Source of the DNA: Paraspadella gotoi
Taxonomy: Eukaryota; Animalia; Chaetognatha
Direction of reading: 5' to 3'
Length of the DNA: 64,000 bases
Assembly (NCBI GenBank): GCA_051294375.1
Contig: CM119270.1
Span: 11,972,416 to 12,036,415, forward strand
Positions 627 to 53,200 of the stretch are shown piece after piece. The number at the start of each line of letters is the position of its first letter. Within the stretch, counting starts at the first letter, position 1. The translations under genes and the position numbers were made by a program. A model generated the notes under the pieces. That model ran no database searches, had not been told where the DNA came from, and worked only from the letters and a program-made list of their open reading frames with translations.

Positions 627-7098
<6,472 letters not shown>

Positions 7099-7114
7099 TC
7101 ATTTAATAAATAAG

Positions 7115-7179
7115 CTATCTTGCCCCTGACTTTGGACAGGCTTTGGTGGTTTAAGGACCCCATCACTCTTACAAGATAA
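7115..7179 (-). ncRNA. Twister ribozyme candidate, type-P5 permutation; predicted cleavage between 7153 and 7152
   Basis: Minus strand reads UUAUCUUGU AAGA GU GA UG G GGUCCU UAA AC C AC C AAA G CCUG UCCAAAGU CAGG G GCAAGAUAG. It is nearly identical to the 9035 copy and lies in a ~132-bp repeat (7062-7193) that is the reverse complement of 9021-9152. Confidence 0.75.
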
Positions 7180-7928
7180 TGACAGAGCAGGTCAATATGA
7201 TATATAGTTTCATCATTAGGACAAAAGTTGTCTAATTTCACGAACGCTTTCCTTCATTCGTCGCCTGTCATAAACGCCTCATGAACGCGTATGACTTCTG
7301 CGAATAATCCCAACAAGAATTCATCAAATTTAACGTATAGCGAAAATTGAAGAAGAGTCTTTACGTTAACAGAGAACCTCCGTTGCGTAATATCTAACGA
7401 GTAGCCTGAGGCAAGCAACGATTTACCGGCGCAACCGGCGACTAACAACTAAATCACTTGGAACCATAACGAGTGAAATCGAAGAGAATAGAACGATTAA
7501 CTTCGTCGCAATTGCATCCACAAAGACTGCGAAGGCCGTTGGTGTCATTGCAATCCTCTCATTTGTATTCACCTTGAAAATCTGGAAACCCGAGTTAACC
7601 AAGGACGGGGTACAAGTGGGATCGACTGACCCACGGTACCGGGGATGTCGTTGTTGTCGTTGTCGTCGTCGTCATCGAGGTCGCGGTAAACAAGGACGGC
7701 ATTTCCCCTTTGAGATCGCATGCCTTCTTTGTCACACTCGTCGTCGTCGTCGTCATTTTTCGTCGTCGTCGTCATTTTTCGTCGACATCATCATCGTCTT
7801 CGTTATCGTTATCGTTATCGCCTTAGAATGGAGGCTTCAAAACTCGTTCGCGTGTTTACCTCGGTTTATCTCTCTCCCTGTTTGCTTTTCTCGTCGCACG
7901 TAAGAAATGTAAAAATGTGTGGAGGAGC

Positions 7929-8051: not shown

Positions 8052-8796
8052 TGTTAATCACCTCTATTTCCTCGATCTCTCCAGTGGTGAACTTTTCCTT
8101 TTGTGGTTTCCTGAAAAAGAAAAAAAAAGAGAATTCGTTTTCTTTCTCAGTTTGTGGACAAATCACAAGAGGCGCTTCTTTCACACCATCTCTTTTTTTT
8201 TTCGGTTGACTTTTTGCCGTATACAAGAAAGTGTCTATTAAGAGTCAGACCTTCAAACCGAGCTCGTGTAGACAACGTTTTTACGTAAAGATGCGCCAGG
8301 GCAGATACAATCAGATATGTCTTGGGTTACTCCCATAAATTATTACACTATCATCGTTCACAGATTGTCAAATTTTCAAGTTCCTCGAAAATAAGTGAAT
8401 GAAATATAGGGCAAGAGGAAAGGAAAGGAAAGGAAATGAAACGGTGAGAGGAGGAAAAAAACTGGGTGAGTAACACTCTGTTCAAATTTCTTCCCTACTT
8501 TTCCGCGGCTAGACTCCCCAAGGAATCAGTCCCGAAATTACGTCTTCGTAATTATGGTAATAATTATATTAATAATAATTATGGTAATAATGGAACGCTG
8601 GCGACAAAGACGGCGAAGACGACGACGAAGTCGACGAAGACGAAAATAACTTCCGTAATAAGAAGACGAAACGAACGACATTCAACATCAATCACGATTA
8701 TGACGATGACGGTTGAAGACAACATCGACGAAAAGACATTCGTAACAGATGGAATCACCGGCAAGTATGTGGAGGACGACTTCTATTACTAATATA

Positions 8797-9152
8797 AATT
8801 TTTATATTGGTTGTACCAATTTCATAAAATTCAGCTCCTTGTATTTTGATGCTAGTGCGGAGTACAATAAGTATTCCCCGATCTAATACTTAAGGGAGTG
8901 GTCTTTTCATACAATTGAAACATTCTTTGAAATATTATACCACTTCATTGATAGGGAAGCCAGGTACTCTGGGAGTGAATAAACGAGACTGTGAGAGAGT
9001 CTTGAATGAAAGCTTGCAGGGACCTGCTATGTCATTATCTTGTAAGAGTGATGGAGGCCTTAAACCACCAAAGCCTGTCCAAAGTCAGGGGCAAGATAGC
9101 TTATTTATTAAATGAATGGATAATTTTTATATTGGTTGTACCAATTTCATAA
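8797..9152 (+). mobile_element. Retrozyme-like unit: 325-nt monomer bounded by a 31-bp perfect direct repeat and containing a twister ribozyme
   Basis: AATTTTTATATTGGTTGTACCAATTTCATAA occurs at 8797-8827 and at 9122-9152 (offset 325). There is no convincing ORF, and partial copies occur elsewhere in the window. Confidence 0.6.
9035..9099 (+). ncRNA. Twister ribozyme candidate, type-P5 permutation; predicted cleavage U9061/A9062
   Basis: P5 UAUCUUGU/GCAAGAUA; P2 GU/AC; conserved GA; T1 UG pairing with CA of loop 4; UAA cleavage motif; T2 AC/GU; C-AAA-G; P4 CCUG/CAGG closing loop UCCAAAGU (compare the twister L4 UCCCAAGC). Confidence 0.8.
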
Positions 9153-9590
9153 CAGAAATGCTGATGGGTTCAACGCCTCAAGGTAAAAACCGTGAAAAGA
9201 AGGGCGCTCTAACTAATTTCAATTGCTAATTACCTTTTAAACGTTTGCACAATCAACGACTCACCTCTTTTAGATTCCCATGGGCGCAAGTGACTCCGGG
9301 GAAAAGCGTCGCTGAGTTAAGTAAAATGAAATTGATCAGTAGAACTCGCATCTTCGCGAAAATAAAGAGCTTGAATCGTTTAATGGAATTATTATAATTT
9401 TTTTTCTCGATTGTTTAGACTAACGTTGCTGGAGAAAGACTGAGTTTTTTGCCAATAGGGCAGCTTTTTAAAGGATGAGCGAGAAAAAGAAAAAAAGATA
9501 GCCCGTGGGGCCCAAGCTAAAATGGGTCGAGGTCCTCCGGCCACCCTTGGAAGTAAAAGCTTATGTGTGACGAACTCGAGCTTAATCATA

Positions 9591-10801: not shown

Positions 10802-13800
10802 TCAAAAGTCTTCTTCTTCAGTTTCCTCCTCTACTTCCTCCGTTCCTCCCTTTACTCCGCTGCCGGACGACTCTTCTCTTCCTTCGGTTTCCGTCTCCGT
10901 TTCCTCTTCTTTTTTCTCTTCCTCTTCAACTTCTTCTTCTTTCCTTTCTCCTTCCTCCACTTCTCCTTCTTGCGTTCTCCTTTCACTTTCCTCAGTCATA
11001 ATTTCCTCTTTAATTTCCTCAACACTTTCTCCTTTCGACTTTTTCTTTTTTTCTCCTTTTTCTTCGCTTTCACCGTCGAATCCTCCTCCTCCTTCTCCTC
11101 CTCCTCCTCCTCTCTTGACGAACCCCTCGAGATTCGAAGGCCTCCATTGCAGTCGCACCTCCGGTTTGAAGCGGTCCGTGAATTTCAAGGCCTTCACGAT
11201 GCGTAGGGTCTCAGTCTGTCGATAATTTTACGTGAGAAGTAATTGTAAGTTTTTTAAAAAAATTCTTTAAAAAAACTAGGAAAAAAATAGGGTGGAAAAA
11301 ATGAAGGAAGGAAGGGAAAAGAAAGAAAGCAAGGAAATAAAGGAAGGAGGTAAGGAAGATAAAAAATGAAAATGTAAAGAAGGAAATGAATAAACCAAAA
11401 AAATACAAGGAAAGAAGGAAGGAAGGAAGGAAGGAAGGAAGGAAGGAAGGAAGGAAGGAAGGAAGGAAGGAAGGAAGGAAGGATAAGAAGGTTGTAAGGC
11501 AGCGAAAGAAATGGGGGAGAAAAAAGAATGTCAGAAGGTACACGAGGGAAAGAATGGAAGAAATAATTATAATAATATTGGTAACCGGGAAAAATATATA
11601 TGCAATTGCCGACTACCTCCATCGCAACCTCCCACTCGCCACCAACCGATTACCCACCGCCCCCAACCACCCTACCACCTCACCACGTTCCTCCCCACGA
11701 CGAAATCGACGGCGGAGGCGAATCTCACGATTCCTTCCTCGTCGATGACGAAAGTCGCGCGCGCGGGAAAACCAGAGGCGGAGATGAAGACCCCGAAGTC
11801 GCGGGCGATGGAACCGGAGGAGTCGGCGACGAGGGGGAAGCGGACGGGGCCCAGGCCTGTTTGGTGGAGGGAGGGGGAGAGAATGAGGTAGGGGATGAAG
11901 GGGAAAGCGGACGGGGCCCAGGCCTGTTTGGTGGAGGGGAGGGGAGAGAATGAGTTAGGGGATGAGGGGAAAGCGGACGGGGCCCAGGCCTGTTTGGTGG
12001 AGGGGAGGGGAGAGAATGAGGTAGGGGATGAAGGGGAAAGCGGACGGGGCCCAGGCCTGTTTGGTGGAGGGAGGGGAGAGAATGAGGTAGGGGATGAGGG
12101 GAAAGCGGACGGGGCCCAGGCCTGTTTGGTGGAGGGGAGGGGGAGAGAATGAGGTAGGGGATGAAGGGGAAAGCGGACGGGGCCCAGGCCTGTTTGGTGG
12201 AGGGAGGGGAGAGAATGAGGTAGGGGATGAGGGGGAAGCGGACGGGGCCCAGGCCTGTTTGGTGGGAGAAGGGGAGAGAATGAGGTAGGGGATGAGGGGG
12301 AAGCGGACGGGGCCCAGGCCTGTTTGGTGGAGGGGAGGGGAGAGAATGAGGTAGGGGATGAGAGGAAAGCGGACGGGGCCCAGGCCTGTTTGGTGGGGGA
12401 GGGAGAGAATGAGGAGGGATGAGAGGAAAGCGGACGGGGCCCAGGCTGTTTGGTGGAGGGGAGGGGGAGAGAATGAGGTAGGGGATGAGGGGAAGCGGAC
12501 GGGGCCCAGGCCTGTTTGGTGGAGGGGAGGGGGAGAGAATGAGGTAGGGGATGAAGGGGGTGAGGAGAGGAGGGAGAGCGAGGAGGGAAAGATAATGCAG
12601 TGATTGGGGAAAGAAGAGAAAAGGTGAGATTAGACGGTAGATAGAATGATCTGGCAAAGTTAGCGGAGGCGAAATAATTTGTTATGGAAAACAAAATAAA
12701 AGGAAGGGAGTTAGAAGATGAGAAAAGAGAAAAAAGGCGGGAAGGAGACGAAGGTAAAATCAAGAAGAATGGGGTAAGAAAAAAAAGGATATGAACGCAA
12801 AATGGAGGAGAGAAATGAATGTGGAGGAAAGAAAAAGTTGAGTAAATTGTAGGTCAGTAAACTGATTAAAACGATTGAAGTGGCGACAGGGTGGACAGAA
12901 AGGAACATGCAGGAAAAAGGTTCTGGTAGAAAAGGCGTTGACTCGCTAAAAAGGCGAGAAAACAACACGAGCGATTAATCAGTTGGGAGGCGGAAAACGA
13001 GTCTCGCGCCGAAAAAACAATTTCGGAGGCGAACGACGACTTCTCGCCATTTCTAAGCTGGATTCTTATCTCAGTGGGCCGGCTGCATTGGAATGAGAAG
13101 GTGGATAAATCTTTCTTCTGGCTACAGAGGTAAGTTAAATAAGCCTAATATCAGCTAATTTAGTCTGCATTATCCTCGCCACCAATTTATTTATACCGCC
13201 TCACCCTTAATTTGAAAATGCAGAGACTTGACCGAGATTCTTCACTTGACCACCGCAACGACCTCACCTCCCAGCTCCCGCGGCTGCTGCGTCCAGCTGA
13301 GATGCGCCATGTCGGAGTCGCAGCTGCAGGCGACGAATTCGCAGTCGATGATGACGAATTCGTCGTAGCGACTCTCGAAGGCCAACAGTTCTGCGAATGA
13401 CAGCACTAACAACTTGTTTTCACGCAATCTTTAACTTTGTTTTGTTTTTAGACTTAGCTTTTTTGATGCTCCTGTATGTACTGAATCAACCTTGTTGAAT
13501 TCGAAATAAAACGCATTAATTATTTCTCGAATGTCAACAGTTCTGCGAATGACAACAATAACACCTCGTAATTTATTTCTTGAATGCCAACAGTTCTGCG
13601 AATGACAACAATAACAACTTGTCATTTATTTTTCGAAGGCCAAAAGTTCTGCGAATGACAACGATAACAACTCATCATTAATTTCTTGAAATCTAACAGT
13701 TCTGTAAATGACAACAACTGGTCATTTGTGTCTCTAAGGCCAACAGTTCTTAAAAAGAACAACGATAACAAAGCGTCAATTTTGTCATTTAGATTCTGTT

Positions 13801-14864: not shown

Positions 14865-31574
<16,710 letters not shown>

Positions 31575-41631: not shown

Positions 41632-42621
41632 GTCCCATCTTCTTCATCTTTCTCTCCCTCACCCCCAACTCCCGACTCTTTTTCGTCTTTTCTTTTAAAT
41701 TTAAAAAAAAATATTCTTTTCAATTTTTTAACCCCAAAACAAAAACAGTTGTTGGTATCGAGAAGCATAAAAACAATTTGAATTTCCTTTCATCAGCGGC
41801 GACAGCAAGAGGCGAGAAACGAGATCTTATTAGTTTCCATCTCAAGAAGAAGACGGATGGTCCTTAAGTCGGATGGGTTAAAGATAAATAGGAACTTGTT
41901 AGCTCAACTGCGCAACCGGTGTTGGTCCGGTGTGACTTGTTTACAAACTTGTGTGATTTGCGTAACTGAGACGTCGCTTAATTTTTTTTTTTAAGCTCTT
42001 CACTTTTCACAACAAACGAAAGTTAAAAAAAATCGAATTAAGGATTCTTCCCGCGACAGCAGCTGTTGTTTTGCCGCAGTTTTTTTGAGTTAGTGGGTTT
42101 TTTTTTTTTACTTGACGCGTCAGTCTCTAACAGAACGACTCTTATCCTCGCCACGTTTAACGAGAAACTGAGATATACATTGTATACAACAATACTTTAC
42201 CAGTTGCAAGTAAGTAGGATTGCTCAGCTCAGCATGTATGTATGATTCTTAGTCCAGCAAATTACGAATGAGAGAGAGAGAGGGAGAGAGCAGATGCAGA
42301 AAATTGAACCCATATTTCGATTTAGCTCTCTCTCATATTATCTTTTNNNNNNNNNNNNNNNNNNNNNNNNNNNNNNNNNNNNNNNNNNNNNNNNNNNNNN
42401 NNNNNNNNNNNNNNNNNNNNNNNNNNNNNNNNNNNNNNNNNNNNNNGGCGAACAATTTCGCCCTTCTTATGCCCCAATAGCCTTTTTTAAGGCTGTTTCA
42501 AAAAAGATTGTCCAGGGTTTTTGCAGACTTTTTGAAAGCCANNNNNNNNNNATTTGTTAAAGATCGTCGTACGGATTTTCCTCGCTCTTCTCTTCTTCCC
42601 TCGCCGACCTCTGTTTTCTCC

Positions 42622-43389
42622 ATGTCGGTTGAGGCTTCTCATTCGTCCGCGGCCGTGTCGGTCCGGCTGCCCGACTTCTGGATCAATGATGCCGCGCTTT
42701 GGTTCGTCCGAGCTGACGCCCAGTTCGCCACTAAAGCTGTCACCGCCTCTCGGACAAAATACTTCCACGCGGTCGCGGCCTTGGGTGAAGACGTCTCCAA
42801 GAAAATTCGTGATTTTTTCATTGACGAACCTGAGAAGCTTGAAGATCCTTACGGCGCTCTCAAGCGGCGCCTACTCGCCGCTTTCTCCCTGGATGGGCCC
42901 GAGCGCGCCGCCAAGATCCTCTCAAGGACCAGTCTCGGCGGGAAACGCCCGGTTGACTTCGTTACGGAACTGCGCGCTCTGGCGGAAGGCCTCTCGGTCG
43001 ATGATGTTCTCCGAGCCATCACTCTTAACGCCCTTCCGCCTCAGGCCGCCGTCGTGGTCACTCAAGNNNNNNNNNNTCCTATGGAACTGGCCAAGGCATC
43101 AGAAAAGTACTTTGATAACGACGGCAACCCCTTCGTTTCCACTGCGGTTGCCCCGCATGGTGCTGGCATGATTCCACCAACTCCTAGTGTCATGGGTGGC
43201 CATGGTGATCAAGTTGGATGCTGCTGCTCTGCGGCGGCGTCATCAGCCTCGCCATCCTTCTGCTGGTTCCATCAGAGATTTGGAGACAAAGCCGTTAACT
43301 GCGCACCTCCATGCACTTTCCGCCGCTCTAACGTCAAGACGCCAGGTGGCAAGAAGAAACGGGGAAATGGCGGCGCCGGTCGCCAGTGA
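42622..43389 (+). CDS. gag: Gag with CHCC motif
   Basis: MSVEASHSSAAVSVRLPDFW...WF...AQF...; CWFHQRFGDKAVNCAPPC is C-X2-H-X9-C-X3-C, typical of the CsRn1 clade. Confidence 0.9.
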   Translation: MSVEASHSSAAVSVRLPDFWINDAALWFVRADAQFATKAVTASRTKYFHAVAALGEDVSKKIRDFFIDEPEKLEDPYGALKRRLLAAFSLDGPERAAKILSRTSLGGKRPVDFVTELRALAEGLSVDDVLRAITLNALPPQAAVVVTQXXXXPMELAKASEKYFDNDGNPFVSTAVAPHGAGMIPPTPSVMGGHGDQVGCCCSAAASSASPSFCWFHQRFGDKAVNCAPPCTFRRSNVKTPGGKKKRGNGGAGRQ

Positions 43390-46300
43390 GCTTGGCGGCC
43401 GGCGTCTCTCCATTGCTCCAAGTTCGGGATCTCGATTCGGGTCTCGAGTTCCTTGTTGACTCTGGCGCCGAGGTCAGTCTCCTCCCGGCATCAACTTGGG
43501 ACAAGCGCAACCGAAGCAAGTCAACGCCGCTCAGCGCCGCCAATGGCTCTTCAATCATGAGCTATGGCACAAGGACGATGACTCTCCGTTTTTCATCAAA
43601 GATTCTGGTCGGCCGTTTCATCATCGCAGATGTGACACGGCCAATTCTTGGCGCTGATTTCCTGCGTCGCCACCACCTTGTCGTAGACATTGCTGGCCGC
43701 AAGCTGTTGGACGCCGACTCATCTGATTGGGTCCGTTGCTCCTCCGTCGCCATTGATGGAGTACGTGGCATCAAGCTGGCGGTCAACAACATCTTCGATG
43801 CTCTCCTCGAAGATCGTCCGGAGCTGACAACTCCAAACTTTTCCTGCAAACAACCAAGGCATGGAGTTTTTCATCACATTCCTACTGAAGGCCATCCTGT
43901 CTTTGCAAGAGCTCGTCGCCTGTCGCCCGAGAAGCTGGCGGCAGTCAAAGGGGAGTTCGAGGAGCTTCAACGCCTTGGCATTGTGCGACCGTCCTCCAGC
44001 CCATGGGCGTCGCCGCTCCATGTTGTCGCGAAACCTGATGGTGGCTTTCGCGCTTGCGGTGACTACCGCCGCCTCAATGCCCTAACAAAGGATGATCGCT
44101 ATCCAGTAAAGCATCTCACGACTTCTCCGCCGACCTCGCGGGGATGTCGGTCTTCAGCAAGATCGACCTCGTCAAGGGCTATCATCAGGTGCCTGTCGCT
44201 GATGAGGATGTTCCAAAGACGGCCATCATCACTCCGTTTGGGTCATTTGAATATCTGAGGATGCCTTTTGGTCTCAAAAACGCTGCCCAGGCTTTCCAAA
44301 GGCTAATGGACTCAGTTTGCCGTGGCCTTCCAAGGGTGTTTGTCTACCTTGATGACATCCTTGTCGCCTCCAAGGATCAGCAGCAGCACCTGGAAGATCT
44401 TGCAAGACTCTTTGACCGCCTGGAGGAACATGGACTCATTCTGAAACGAGAGAAGTGCGTTCTTGGCGCCGCTTCTCTTGACTTTCTTGGCCACAAGGTT
44501 GACTCGTCTGGCGTCACTCCGCTGCCCGACAAGGTGGCGGTCATCCGTGCCTTCCCCAAGCCATTGACGATCAAGGAACTCCAACGTTTCCTGGGCATGG
44601 TCAATTTCTTCCGGCGTTTCTTGCCGCATGCTGCATTGACCATGGCGCCACTTTTTGGTGCCCTCAAGGGAAAACCTCAGCCAAAAATTGTTGAATGGAC
44701 GTCAGAACGCATCAAGGCATTTGAAGAAACCAAAGAAGCCCTCGCATCTGCTTCTATGCTTGTCCATCCCGTTTCTGGCGCCGTGACGGCGCTGACCGTT
44801 GACGCTTCTGATGTCGCGATCGGAGGAGTTTTGGAACAACTTGTCCATGGATCCTGGCGGCCACTTGCCTTTTTCTCGAAGCCTCTACGGGACAATGAGA
44901 AGAAGTACTCTCCATTTGACCGGGAGTTGCTGGCAGCTCACCTTGCCATCCGCCACTTCCGATACTTCCTGGAGGGGCGCCCCTTCACGCTCTTTACGGA
45001 CCACGTCAGTCTTGTTCCTTCTCTGCACAAGAAGACGGATTCCCAAACAGCCAGGCAGGCCAACCAGCTGGCTGCTATCTCTGAATTCACCACGGATGTT
45101 CGCCATGTCTCTGGGAAAAAGAACATTGTTGCCGATACCCTCTCCAGGGTGGTCATCCCTGACGCCGTTGATGCTGTCAGCGGCGACGGCAATCTCAACT
45201 TTGCCAACCTCGCTCAAGACCAAGAAGAGGATCAAGACATCCGCCGTTTGCGGGCATCATCGACGACTTCTCTCCGACTTCAGATGGCCATTCTTGATGG
45301 CACCCAAGTCATTGTGGACATCTCCACCGGCGTTGCACGGCCACTGGTTCCACGAAACTGGCGCCGCATCGTCTTTGATGCGATCCACAGTCTTTCTCAT
45401 CCGGGCGTCAAAGCAACCAAAGCACTTGTTTTGAAACATTTTGTCTGGCCCGGTGCGGCCAAGGACGCCGCCAGCTGGGCACGTTCCTGCATCACCTGCC
45501 AACGGGCAAAGGTGCGGACTCATGCCTCGGCACCTCTGGAGGTTTTCAAGCCGCCACAAAGGAGATTTCAACATGTCCATGTCGACCTCGTTGGGCCACT
45601 TCCAGCCTCAAGAGGTTACACCCACCTCCTCACCGTTGTCGACCGCTTCAGTCGGTGGCCAGAGGCAGTCCCGATCTCAGACATCTCAGCGCGGTGCGCT
45701 GCGCGCTTTTGTCGTTCTGGTTGGGTTGCCCGCTTTGGCGCCCCCCTGGAGATTACTTCTGATCGTGGAAAGCAATTCATCTCAGATCTCTGGCGTCAAT
45801 TGGCGTCAACCCTTGGCGCCAATCTTCATCATACCACCGCTTACCATCCTCAAGCCAAGGAATGGTGGAACGGTTCCATCGTGACCTCAAGGGCGTCTCT
45901 ACGCGCAAAATTGGTCGGCGCTCACTGGGTCGACCAACTCCCCGGCATCCTCCTAGGTCTTGCTCAGTGTTCCGTCAAGACCTGGGTGCCTCCATCGCGG
46001 AACTAGTCTACGGCGAAGAGATCGCGATGCCGGCGGAGTTCCAACCGGAACCTGGCGCCGCCGCCAGAGATCAACGACCTCCTTCGCGCTCTTCGGCGGC
46101 GAGACAGCGGCGCTTCGACCTATCGAAGGCACGCGCCATTCGACACATCGCGATGCCATTCCTGAAGGTCTTCACGAGGCGCGGTTTGTCCTTGTGCGCC
46201 AGGACGCTCACCGGGGACGCTGCAAACCAGTCTACAACGGTCCTTTCGTGTTCTCAGCCGTAATGCCAAGTATTTCCGTCTGGACTTTGGCGGGCGACCC

Positions 46301-46548
46301 GACGAGGTTTCCATTGACAGCAGCTCAAGCCCTTCGTCGAGGACACAACTCCGACGTTGCCGGCTCAGCCGCCGCCCCGAGGCCGGCCCCGCGCAGTGCC
46401 TGCAGTTCCAGCTTCGCCTCCTCCAGTGCCATCGGCGATTCCATTGAGTTCTGCAGCTCCAATGCCTTTGGCGACACGGCACCAACCAGCACGGAACGCC
46501 CCTCGGCCTCTTCGATATAGGGACGAAGAACTCTATCTCCTACCGTGA
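43362..46548 (+). pseudogene. pol: Pol (protease, RT, RNase H, integrase) with several frameshifts, real or assembly errors
   Basis: FLVDSGAEVS protease; MPFGLKNA and YLDD in RT; VDAS...RELLA in RNase H; HSLSH...CITC and HVDLVG...SDRG in integrase. Frame breaks occur near 44118 and 45860-46350. Confidence 0.92.
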
Positions 46549-48382: not shown

Positions 48383-48972
48383 GAGAGAGAAGAGAGAAGA
48401 GAGAGAGAAGGAGAGAGAAAGAGAGATTCAGTTAGGCATATAATATATAAACTTATGTATTTAAGATTCGTTTCAAATTGAACAATCATAACGTAAAAAA
48501 TCATGAACTAACAAACTAACAAACAAAAACAGAGACGAATGAAATGCGAGACGAACAGACAGACTAACCGACGCGTGATTACCTGAGGCGGCGTAAAGAA
48601 TGTGACTCGGAGGACCCACTTTCCATTTCGTGTCGTGACGCTTCATGACGCGGGACGCAGCCTCGTTCGCTACAGCGATCAGATCCTGAAAGGGGGGATA
48701 TGGAGAGGGGCGGTATTATGAAAAAGAGAGAGCGGGAAAGGCAGAGGAGAATAAAGAGCATATATAAGAAGGTGAATTTTGAAAATGGCGCGGGGTGAAG
48801 TAGCGATAGAAACGAAGGGCGAGACTGAAGGCTAATGTTGTCTTCTTTTTGACGCAAAGACAAAAACGAGAGCGCCGGCGAAAATACAGAAACAAAAGAG
48901 CAAAACAAAAACAAAAAACAACAAATTCGAAGACTCGTTGAGCCGAGGAGAAGAGGCTCGACGTATTTTGCT

Positions 48973-49007
<35 letters not shown>

Positions 49008-50160
49008 CTCACGTCGTAATCTTCCGGCAATTCCTTAGTGTAAGCCCACGGAGTCAACCACAACTGAGAGAATGAGTGAAAAGAGATATAAGCTTTGAGT
49101 TCGTCCCTCAACGAGAGAATCGTCTCAGCCGTTGATCTCGTCGAAGCCTCTGGAAAAGAAGGAGTGGGTGGGTTTGCAGGTGAGGTTAAGACCTTAAAGA
49201 GGGTGAGTGAATTAAACAAAAAACAATAGAGCAAATTACCGATAAAATTAATTTTTCTGACGAAAAATTAACTAAATTAAAGTAAAAAATTACAAATTAC
49301 AAAGAACTCAAGATAAAAAAAACTCAAAATAAAAACCAAAACAATGGCTAGACCCCTTAAATGCCCTTATATACCCAACCGACCAGAAAATGCGTAAGGA
49401 CCCGGGTAAACGTCAAAACACGGGTTCTTCCCGACGCCGCTAGTCCCGAAATGCGCGTCCCAGTTCCGGTTCGGGTCGGCGCCGGGACAAAAGGAATTGT
49501 GGGGCGTCACGGTTTTACGCCACATCCGGTCTTTGGAGAAAGTGACCTCGTAGCCGTCGGGGTTAAGAACGGGGATGATGTACCTGAAAGTGATTGGATT
49601 GGATTGATTTATTGATTTAATTAGTTGATACATTGAATGTTTGATGAAAAATAATCCCCATTTTCCTCACCACACCATATCCGTGGTGAGTTTCACCACG
49701 GCGGGATCCTCGCTGTTCAACAGCAGATCGATGATGTAGATGCTCGAGGCTGTAGACACCCATTCCCTCGCGTGGGTGCCGGCGTCCATCCAGAAGGCGG
49801 GTTTTCCGAGGGCGGAAGTGCCGATCTGGGGAAAGAAAGAAGGATAGCGGAGAAAGGAAAAGTATCTAAGAAAAGTGTCGCTGTGTCAGAAGCTTTTAAC
49901 TATCCATCGTTGAGACGACCTTGATCCCTTTCAACGGATTCCCCAGGTAAGAGTTCCCGGCGGAGAATGGAAAGGCTCGTCCGGGATGCTTCTCCACCAA
50001 CTCGTCCAGCCATTTGTAGATCTCCCACAGTCGAGGATATCTACCGACGATCGTGTCCGTGAGAGAGTAGGTGGCGGCGAGGTTGGATAACTCCTGGCAG
50101 GTGGGGTGAGTGAAAACGAAATAAATAAATAAATAAATTAATAAATAAATAAATATAGAT

Positions 50161-50215
<55 letters not shown>

Positions 50216-53200
50216 AAAAAGAAAAGAAAATTACTTGAAACTGGATCGCCTCCTGCAAATTCCCGATGACCTCGTCCACCTTCAGCCCTTCTCTCTCCAG
50301 TCGCCCGACGACGGCGTCGACGACCGACTCGGCGGCGCGGAACCCAACCTCCGCCTCCACGGCCACGGGTTCCCGCCAAAAGTCGAGGAGGAGAGCTTCG
50401 TCAAGGAGTAGGTCCTTTTGAGAGAAGGGGGAATGATAGGGGGTGAGGGGAAGAAGGAGATGAGGGAGGAAGAAGGGAAGGAGGGGAAGGGGCAGAAGCA
50501 GGGGGAAGGGAAGAATTGAGAGAAAAATTAAAAGGAAAGGAGGGAGAGGAGGGGCATTTGAAAGGTGGTAGAGAGAGAGAAGTTGAGGGGAGGAAAGGAA
50601 TGGAATGGAAGTGGAAATGGAAAATTGAGGAGTCGGAAAAGAGAGAAAGGGAGAGGAATCAGGAGCGGGAGCAAAAGGTGAAAGTGGGAAATAAATATTG
50701 TCTACGAAGTCGTTGGAAAACATTTATGAGTATGAATGGCTTTAAAATAGTGGATCGCTCGGGAGATGGAGGGAGGTTAAGGTTTGAGAACAAAGAGAGA
50801 GAAGCGAAAGACAAAAGCGGAAAGAATCCGAGGACGAAATGGAAACGGATACAAAATACTTTTCGAGCTCAAAATAACAAAATGAAACGGAAAACGATTT
50901 CGCCGATTCCTGTTTTCGCTGACTCGTCATGACGTCGCCACGCCGCCCAAAACAACGAAATCGATTATGACAATCGACGTTTTTTCGCGCGAGATGGACG
51001 ACAACGACGACGACAACTACGACGACCACGATAGGGACCAAGGGACGCCATAGTCGGACCTCAGTTTGCGTGTACGTGTCCCCGAGAAATCGGGTTCCCG
51101 GTCGACCGTTGACTAGTGATCTCTTTTATTTTAACCTCTGCACGAGATTTCTTTAATTTAGCTGTTTAATTGATTTTAAATATATTTTGTTAAAAAAACG
51201 AATAGTGCTTTAAGGGATTCCGACTTGGCAAACACGAAGACCACAGCTATGAAAACAACGACAACAACAACAATAACAAAAAAAATATAAACGGTCACAA
51301 CGACAACAACCAACTACATCCAAAGAGAGCCTCCTCTTGTCCGCACGACAAAGCGACACCAACCCTGACACGCATTCCCTTTCCCTTTTGTCCGAGCGAA
51401 TTTCGTCCGTCGCCAGAATCCCGTTTTTACGACTTCAAACTCGATCGGTTCGTGTCGCTACAGTACGGAGCGACCAGAAGTTACAGTGGGACCTCATTAT
51501 CTCAAGACAAGAATTGACGGGAAGACCTCGGTTAATTCGCTAAGACAAAGGATATATTGCGTCGTCGCTGGAAAACGAGTAAAAGATTGAGACAACGAAA
51601 TAACCAGTTTTGTTGGATCTGGCGATTTTATTTCGACGCGCTGATATTTATTGCTTATCTCTTCGCCAAAGGATTTGAAAAAAAAATCACATTCAAGAAA
51701 GGAGCTAAAAATAATTATTCAATCATAATACCTCGACCGATGAATTTCAAAACGTAATGACAACGTAATATCTATTTTTACCCACTTTCGGCGTCAGTTT
51801 ACGACCGATATCGAATACTAATCAATTTAATTAATTAATTAATGTACGACTAATTTGTTGCGCAAAATTAGTTCCCGGATTCGGCGAATGTTCGATTTGT
51901 GACAAGAAACTTTTTTCAGTTTAGATGGATGACAAAAAACAGTAAAAGATTAGCTATGAAAGGTTACGGTGTGTCATGATCTGAACCACGTGACGTGAAC
52001 TCCTCCTGCCACGAGACCAATTAAATGAATGAGTAATTCTATTAAAGAGAGACCGATTTTTATAGTGGGAGATTCGGGTCTAAATTAATGGTAGCGATAA
52101 ACGGAAAAAAATATTCTCGCGATAATCCTTAAATTAAAGCTTAATTCAACTTTACAACGTATATAAACTAAAAATAGCAACGAAAAAAATAAAAGAAAAC
52201 AAAAAAAAGACGAATAAAAGAAACGAAAAACTAAAACAAACAAATAAGATTAAACAATTAAAATTGAAAAAATACAAAAAACAAAAAAACAAAAAAAACA
52301 AAAAACAAAAAAACAATAAAAAAAAATCGAAAAAGAAACGCCAACCTCACTTTACTTAAAATCAAATTAAACAATGCTACTCTGGACATATCTTCTACCT
52401 CTCCTTTCCCTCGTCTTTCCTTCCAACCTCCTTTTCCTCCCTTCCGTCAAATCTACTTCCCCCCTCACTCTCCCTCTCCTCTCCCTCTTCCTCCTTCCCT
52501 CCATCCCTCTCTCCTCCGCCAACATCTTCGCGCCCCCGAGCGCCTTCTCCCTCCGAACGACGATGAGTCGCGGCGCCGATAAACGGCTGCGGCGCTGGGT
52601 TCGCAAAGGCGCCAAGATGCGCGTGGACATCTTCTTGCGCTGGGGGAAGGAGTTGGGGATGCCGGAGGAGGCCGAGAGGTGCCGTCACGGGAGGGTTCGT
52701 GGAAGAACGTTTTTAGGTCAGTAAAAAAGAAATATTAGTATGAAATACTCGTCTCTGCTCAATATAACATTAGGCTCAAACATATATTGGTTGTACTAAT
52801 GTCATAAGATAATTTTAGTAGTTCATTATTAACCTTAAAATTCATCAGCTCCTCCGGGACCAGATTCAGCTGATGAAATCTATCGACAGACAGACAACGA
52901 TTTACAAAAAAACGTGACTCATTCTGTCTCAGCTGTAACTTTGACTCAACGTCTTTTAAATCCTTTACATGACTGAGTAAAGTGGGAATTATAAAAACAT
53001 GTCATCATTCTAAATATTGTGTCCACATAATATTTTTTAGACTTTATTTAAATTTACAACTAATAAATAATTTGATTATTCATTCCCTCAAGAAAACCCG
53101 AACGCGACAGAAACCGAGCCAGTCACTTCTCCCTCGCGCCTCCCTCTCCCGCCACTCGCTCGCCCCTTCCGCTCCTCGGCCAGACACGCCCATCTCATCG

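Follow-up and report, generated by a model that had tools for sequence, protein, structure and literature searches.

The locus studied here raises the question of whether a retrozyme can be built on a twister. Animal retrozymes are defined by a type I hammerhead ribozyme, and their tie to Penelope-like elements (PLEs) is argued in part from that common ribozyme. The window, by which we mean the whole 64,000-nt stretch of DNA analyzed, contains a 325-nt unit that the initial annotation proposed to be an analogous retroelement using a twister instead. The present analysis indicates that the unit is a high-copy non-coding repeat with a P5 twister that is predicted to self-cleave, and that it is probably a non-autonomous, retrozyme-like element copied by a PLE from multimeric and possibly circular RNA.

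The direct repeat bracketing the unit is perfect over 31 bp, as originally claimed, with 8797-8827 being identical to 9122-9152 at an offset of 325 nt and the identity stopping at both edges (Table 1). The unit is also non-coding in practice, since its only open reading frames are of 23-48 amino acids. With a length of 325 nt, inside the retrozyme range of about 150-450 nt, a GC content of 37.5%, that is, below 50%, and no LTR/PBS/PPT arrangement, it has the layout of a non-LTR retrozyme. No target-site duplication was found in the three window copies tested, and none of 4 nt or more lies near the ends of 8797-9152. Scans of the unit for a tRNA head, a B box, and a promoter or terminator returned nothing. 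A tRNA-derived SINE was rejected because the tRNA head and B box, a common A-rich or simple-repeat tail, and a target duplication are all missing. Helitrons and MITEs are recognized by a CTRR end, or by two fixed ends with inverted repeats and a target duplication; they were likewise rejected, as the end of the unit reads CATA(A), the 5' ends are scattered and there is no target duplication. The stretch 8903-8935 shows imperfect complementarity to the 3' repeat of the unit.

Table 1. Features of the 325-nt unit and of its other copies in the window.
Feature	Position	Strand	Remarks
Complete insertion: 325-nt unit with 31-nt terminal extension (1.1-mer)	8797-9152	+	depth single-copy outside 8788-9155
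31-nt repeat, 5' copy, likely PLE-type "tail"	8797-8827	+	start maybe 2-3 nt earlier (equivalent to 9120)
325-nt monomer	8828-9152	+	
Three-way-junction domain	8834-8899	+	free of common variants; without Rfam match
P5-position helix that closes the twister	9036-9043/9091-9098 (9036-9098)	+	8 bp; pair probability 0.76-0.84
Type-P5 twister core	9047-9089	+	Rfam Twister-P5 (RF02684)
P2	9047-9049/9064-9066	+	2 pairs and one A.C mismatch
GA loop strand	9050-9051	+	
T1, UGG with CCA	9052-9054/9079-9081	+	Watson-Crick
Palindrome AGGCCU in place of P1	9055-9060	+	6 nt
UAA loop strand	9061-9063	+	
Predicted self-cleavage site, U/A	9061-9062	+	from alignment to RF02684
T2, AC with GU	9067-9068/9084-9085	+	Watson-Crick
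P4	9074-9077/9086-9089	+	4 of 4 pairs
31-nt repeat, 3' copy	9122-9152	+	small inverted repeat at 9128-9143; fixed 3' end of the family at 9150-9152
Older 5'-truncated copy, internal deletions, twister broken	1185-1338	-	86% over 87 nt (1200-1285)
Young copy, 5'-truncated: from 9021 through the end and 4 nt into the next unit	7058-7193	-	97.7% over 132 nt
Old copy, internally deleted (8903-9148)	23249-23426	-	
Duplicate of the old 23249-23426 insertion, within the 7.57-kb local duplication	30857-31036	-	
Relic: repeat followed, after some 30 nt of other sequence, by a degenerate start of a next unit	52783-52855	+	

The twister reported for the unit is borne out by a sub-threshold Rfam match to Twister-P5, in which the loops and both pseudoknots are intact. 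The match scores 25.8 bits against a gathering score of 37.6, with an E-value of 0.0028 on 551 nt and of 0.32 on the whole window, and a scan at gathering thresholds gave no match in the window. A second Twister-P5 match falls at 7125-7167 on the minus strand; in the unit itself the motif is confined to the plus strand. The UAA and GA strands and the L4 loop are conserved, and the motif differs from the Rfam consensus in T1 (UGG/CCA), T2 (AC/GU), the 3-nt P2 and the 6-nt P1. The score probably stays below the cut-off because P1 has shrunk to the palindrome, which as a hairpin of its own would cost +4 to +6 kcal/mol, so that a P1 hairpin is absent; its pairing with a second copy is predicted at -9.1 kcal/mol. 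One contig of run X2 has a different palindrome in this linker. The A.C mismatch of P2 is present in nearly all copies. In the P5-position helix the variant seen most often, 9091 G>A (20% in X2), replaces U.G by U-A and preserves the pair. Twister cleavage falls at the U-A of the UAA loop (PMC8501958), and P1 has been found dispensable and P2 mismatches tolerated, unlike defects in the pseudoknots (PMC5408937; PMC11662667, the latter for type-P1 twisters only).

The departures from the Rfam consensus were compared with relatives in viral and metagenome contigs, searched with a pattern that fixes GAUGG, UAA, the L4 loop and six P4 bases. The pattern matched 40 loci (L001-L040; 6 viral and 34 metagenome) with 32 distinct cores, 25 of which have a fully paired 3-bp P2 together with AC/GC at T2, neither of these being required by the pattern. 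In the alignment (A2) of 26 cores, from which L009, L013, L016, L030, L038 and L039 were left out as poorly paired or shifted, 99.1% of the cells pair and 10 of 18 pairs vary on both sides, while T1 is uninformative, being fixed by the search pattern; AC stands at T2 in 22 of the 26. All 20 loci tested out of the 40 pass the Rfam Twister-P5 cut-off. Because these relatives pair and pass that cut-off, a 3-bp P2, UGG/CCA and AC/GU are normal in the subtype. A model (R1) built from the 26 prokaryote and phage loci, excluding the window, gives the window copies 39.9 bits (E 6e-7) and 38.0 bits and the best unrelated place 13.5 bits, scores that are biased towards the window and not independent, since the model was seeded by a window-derived pattern. 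Judged from its sequence, then, the 9047-9089 core belongs to a genuine P5 twister subtype. The resemblance of the 40 loci to the 325-nt unit is limited to the ribozyme core, and an exact pattern of the 325-nt family has no matches in either the metagenome or the viral contigs. Several of the loci hold more than one ribozyme within 3 kb, namely a twister and a pistol in L002, a twister, a pistol and a type II hammerhead in L003, and two twisters in L007, L010 and L012.

As a circle, the plus strand is predicted to fold into a branched rod of -81.1 kcal/mol with 68% of its bases paired (z -2.4, 1 of 100 shuffles being as good); the linear plus strand folds less well (z -1.6) and the circular minus strand is average (z 0.0). 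In the predicted ensemble, which cannot model pseudoknots, P4 has a probability of 0.06 and P2 of 0, so an inactive fold competes with the twister. None of the 30 places with common variants falls in 9048-9090 (P about 0.01, a post hoc value for variants that are not independent), and 8828-8899 is likewise free of them. The three-way-junction domain within the latter region might act as a promoter region or bind a protein. No selection on the circular fold as a whole was detected, the mean ddG being 0.97 for common and 0.86 for random variants (p = 0.64).

The window contains further copies, and the earlier list of them stands in part. The copy given as 7057-7193 is confirmed at 7058-7193, with an intact twister core and a linker that is no longer palindromic; the one given as 1185-1286 is real and extends to about 1338 (nhmmer), its internal deletions taking out the GAUGG strand; and the suspected relic near 52783 holds up over 52783-52814, the only part compared with a null, where it outscores all 1440 of 1440 random window stretches. 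The old copy at 23249-23426 and its duplicate had been overlooked. The differing end points ascribed to the copies are found at the 5' ends; the 3' ends all lie at about 9148-9152 of the unit. The two youngest copies, 7058-7193 on the minus strand and 8797-9152 on the plus strand, stand back to back, 1.6 kb apart, with their 3' ends pointing outward and with sequence between them that resembles ordinary host DNA; the arrangement is possibly due to chance or to an inverted PLE-type event. A 10-bp inverted repeat overlaps the end of the relic copy (about 52840-52880, plus strand).

The surroundings are eukaryotic, with introns and microsatellites alongside a Ty3/Gypsy element and a procarboxypeptidase, and an animal host is likely. 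A tandem duplication at about 16700-31400, with a period of about 7.57 kb, 94-100% identity and an N gap near 28.2-28.4 kb, may be real or an assembly of two haplotypes. The Ty3/Gypsy-type LTR element (42481-46520, plus strand) has protease, RT, RNase H and integrase domains in several frames. At 11831-12559 and 13520-13717, a 66-bp minisatellite of 11 copies and a 53-bp repeat lie between short exons, which we take to read like peroxiredoxin. Animal-type procarboxypeptidase exons with an M14 activation peptide occupy 48700-50723 on the minus strand, with no more than weak matches to carboxypeptidase A/B in the PDB; a homolog search with a 60-aa exon returned no match.

Public sequencing runs allow the family to be viewed beyond the window. 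The unit is contained in whole or in part in 17 of the 19 runs listed, and 9 of these hold at least half of its words; all nine are from organism A, in three studies, and two of them may be the source of the window DNA. None of the listed runs holding it is recorded as RNA, which carries no information on expression. The numbers of contigs aligned were 29,080 for X1, 22,492 for X2, 6,755 for X5, 5,427 for X7 and about 1,500 for X9. Contig depth falls to single-copy outside 8788-9155. In all five organism-A runs aligned, the 3' end is fixed at 9150-9152, mostly at 9151, and this is where reverse transcription would start. Among the rows listed (24 of 1844), loose ends at 9147-9152 number at least 641 in X1, 278 in X5, 210 in X7 and 89 in X9, and their flanks are unrelated and AT-rich (agreement 0.39-0.45). 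There are thus at least hundreds of insertions with a common 3' end and scattered 5' ends. The summed depth, which is not taken as a copy number, climbs toward the 3' end in all five of these runs, as expected from 5' truncation. The initial annotation had expected freely permuted ends, an expectation that fails, since the fixed end lies about 90 nt past the predicted cut. The low-depth, near-identical contigs in runs of organism B (3) and organism C (1) were set aside, contamination or prey being as likely as a relative, and apparent pile-ups of 5' ends at 8870, 9072 and 9076 were not counted as truncation sites, their loose letters being similar to indel or divergent variants already known.

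Head-to-tail joints bear on the template. Among the 15 of 285 joints listed, 9152>8828 is found in 22 contigs of X2 (shorter side 28 nt) and 5 of X9 (33 nt), which could derive from 1.1-mers like that in the window, and 9152>8831 in 6 contigs of X2 with a shorter side of 79 nt; X1 has 9125>8818 with a shorter side of 36 nt. The 79- and 36-nt sides show that unit-to-unit links exceed the 31-nt repeat, both coming from possible source runs of the window. Among the contigs listed, none spans a whole unit or two twisters, the joints reaching 79 nt on the shorter side. Joints longer than the repeat support head-to-tail linkage of units, and the repeat of the 1.1-mer looks more like a PLE "tail" than like random overshoot. 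The unit is not merely a fixed fragment of a longer element, the outcome named in advance as contradicting the proposal, given the closed 325-nt unit and the head-to-tail joints. In X9, a run guessed to be RNA, the depth is strongly 3'-biased and DNA-like, a quantity that contigs measure poorly, and unlike the flat depth that one abundant circle would suggest. In the same run, which does not cover the window flank, 6-7 contigs start at 9120 with unrelated flanks, a start point shared with the window copy.

These observations can be arranged into a mechanism. Head-to-tail copies would be transcribed, and the twister would quite likely cut between 9061 and 9062 to give 325-nt monomers with a 5'-OH and a 2',3'-cyclic phosphate. 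By analogy with hammerhead retrozymes, for which RtcB-type circularization is reported (PMC7229834), a host ligase of this type might then close the monomers, a step about which we are undecided. A PLE protein with RT and GIY-YIG domains would probably nick AT-rich DNA and prime internally at about 9151, about 90 nt past the cut. Copying would usually stop early, leaving 5'-truncated copies, and sometimes run beyond one unit to give 1.1-mers and longer products; the 31-nt tail would be left by resolution near 9120, a second preferred point. More speculatively, the palindrome in place of P1 could allow two neighboring twisters to pair, so that they cut as dimers in the manner of minimal hammerheads. 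The DNA is compatible with a circle and with a linear multimer as template, and the data do not tell the two apart. As the fixed 3' end does not coincide with the ribozyme cut, simple end-copying of cut linear monomers is ruled out, and its position away from the cut fits internal priming.

The involvement of a PLE is suggested by the footprint of the insertions. In the anole PLE (PAc), the hammerhead cuts at +26 in the ORF, priming takes place 111-118 nt in, and AT-rich targets are used (PMC11167929); the cut-to-priming spacing computed from these values is 85-92 nt, compared to 89-91 nt in the unit. Tails of 30-40 bp are frequent on PLE insertions, at either end (PMC8557442), and the 31-nt repeat may be compared with them. 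The unit thus has the fixed internal 3' start, 5' truncation, AT-rich targets and 30-40-nt-class tail of a PLE derivative, and animal retrozymes have been argued to be non-autonomous PLE derivatives (bioRxiv 10.64898/2026.07.22.740005). In the anole PLE the cutting by the hammerhead is dispensable for insertion in vitro (PMC11167929), and of nine predicted Xenopus retrozymes one cleaved (bioRxiv 10.64898/2026.07.22.740005). A partner PLE was not found among the nine window ORFs scanned. In its fullest form the proposal would make this the first natural twister retrozyme, forming 325-nt RNA circles with a bacterial- or phage-type P5 twister that has a palindrome for P1 and cuts only as a double twister in multimers, and riding a PLE lineage that itself switched from hammerhead to twister; we consider this complete version doubtful.

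Part of the same footprint would also be left if the unit were the pseudo-LTR of an autonomous twister-bearing PLE, the copies being mostly its 5'-truncated pieces and the closed unit a minor by-product. The fixed 3' end, the tail-sized repeat, the AT-rich targets and the cut-to-end spacing are all PLE traits, and PLE insertions are mostly 5'-truncated (bioRxiv 10.64898/2026.07.22.740005). We nevertheless judge this unlikely, because what precedes the unit in the window is its own 3' end and no ORF, because the joints with 36- and 79-nt sides link unit to unit, and because no pile of loose ends precedes 8828 among the rows listed (24 of 1844). It appears quite unlikely that an ordinary LINE (RTE, L2 or CR1) primes a SINE-like element at the 3' end, with the twister only trimming transcripts and the joints arising by template jumps or local duplication and no circle being formed. 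Such an element would share the fixed 3' end and 5' truncation, which are the general TPRT pattern, and the inverted repeat 9128-9143 just before the end; moreover, twisters are known at RTE 5' ends (PMC8501958, PMC7761336), and trimming of transcripts has been proposed for Perere-3. It would not be expected to lack a poly(A) or simple-repeat tail common to its copies (their flanks are A/T-rich but agree at about 0.4), a target duplication in the three window copies, and a tRNA head or B box, nor to carry its twister within the unit at 90 nt from the 3' end rather than at a fixed 5' end.

Rolling-circle DNA elements likewise give one fixed end, concatemers and no target duplication, and the imperfect complementarity of 8903-8935 to the 3' repeat, together with the old 23249 copy spanning about 8903-9148, would agree with such an element. 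A DNA-level origin (Helitron/Helentron-type rolling circle, MITE or dispersed satellite with a captured twister) is nonetheless very unlikely in view of a unit end that is not CTRR and varies over 9147-9152, the scattered 5' ends, a young copy that extends past the would-be left repeat, and common variants that spare the twister core, pointing to an RNA stage. The least probable of the alternatives, in our estimate, accepts the retrozyme origin and takes the twister to be already inactive through loss of P1 and the P2 mismatch, the family having spread from uncut transcripts. The sub-threshold Rfam score, the competing fold and the C.A mismatch in nearly all copies agree with an inactive ribozyme, as does the insertion of PLEs in vitro without ribozyme cutting (PMC11167929). 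However, the catalytic-loop and pseudoknot positions are all intact and free of common variants, and other twisters tolerate loss of P1 and P2 mismatches (PMC5408937, PMC11662667).

If the preferred reading, a PLE-copied repeat with a self-cleaving twister, is correct, the ribozyme would be a replaceable module, what counts being that some self-cutting motif lies about 90 nt upstream of where priming occurs. A twister retrozyme would give genomic twisters a concrete role beyond the single LINE case and would be a natural counterpart to the engineered twister system for making circles. Should a twister indeed depend on a partner copy for its P1, its catalytic arrangement would be new. With its fixed end and its tail, this one young, high-copy family opens the long-assumed PLE mechanism of retrozymes to testing.

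Twisters are on record from the 5' ends of RTE elements, from viroid-like circles and from RNA viruses (PMC7761336, PMC6765202, PMC5680766, PMC8501958, PMC13725137, bioRxiv 10.1101/2022.07.19.500677). The 2026 preprint on retrozymes (bioRxiv 10.64898/2026.07.22.740005) makes no use of the word twister, and PMC7229834 has it once, for an engineered system; the terms "circular" and "dimer" are absent from PMC8501958, and the searched terms from the available part of PMC11722881. A twister-based retrozyme or a twister-bearing PLE was not found in the literature, represented mainly by titles and the openings of abstracts, and published twister lists may include one.

Among the known systems, the Schistosoma RTE Perere-3 carries twister T-variants with a weak P1 that are linked to a retroelement, as in the unit, whereas those twisters occupy the 5' end of a LINE that is autonomous and makes target duplications (PMC8501958). 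Twisters process small circles in viroid-like circular RNAs (bioRxiv 10.1101/2022.07.19.500677) and in totivirus tandem ribozyme pairs (PMC13725137); these are RNA replicons with twister-P1 and often with a ribozyme on each strand, while the unit is a genomic repeat with the motif on the plus strand only. The closest match to the ribozyme itself is the subtype GAUGG / 3-bp P2 / AC / UCCAAAGU of RF02684, which has the same loops, both pseudoknots, P2 length and P4. In the well-formed phage and metagenome loci, however, P1 is a hairpin of 14-20 nt instead of the 6-nt palindrome, and the unit further differs in having one P2 mismatch, in the 8-bp helix at the P5 position and in being a eukaryotic repeat.

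With PLEs (anole PAc, PMC11167929; Naiad/Chlamys, PMC8557442) the unit shares the fixed internal start, located there 85-92 nt past the cut, the AT-rich targets, the 30-40-nt terminal extension and the partial tandem copies, and non-autonomous head-to-tail derivatives are reported for Chlamys (PMC8557442); it differs in having no ORF and a twister instead of a hammerhead. The metazoan non-LTR retrozymes (PMC7229834; bioRxiv 10.64898/2026.07.22.740005) are, like the unit, non-coding, 170-400 nt long and below 50% GC, with one self-cleaving motif per unit, head-to-tail links, a self-paired fold, many dispersed copies and a proposed mobilization by PLEs. They carry a type I hammerhead and are known as long arrays and circular RNA, whereas the unit has a Twister P5 and is known from the window and from contigs, and its window copies also lack a target duplication. 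Since no hammerhead family was reported by Rfam on either strand, the unit does not have the ribozyme by which metazoan retrozymes are defined: it probably works like a non-LTR retrozyme and, for want of the hammerhead, is not placed in that group. The animal repeats of retrozyme type described in the accessible literature all carry a hammerhead.
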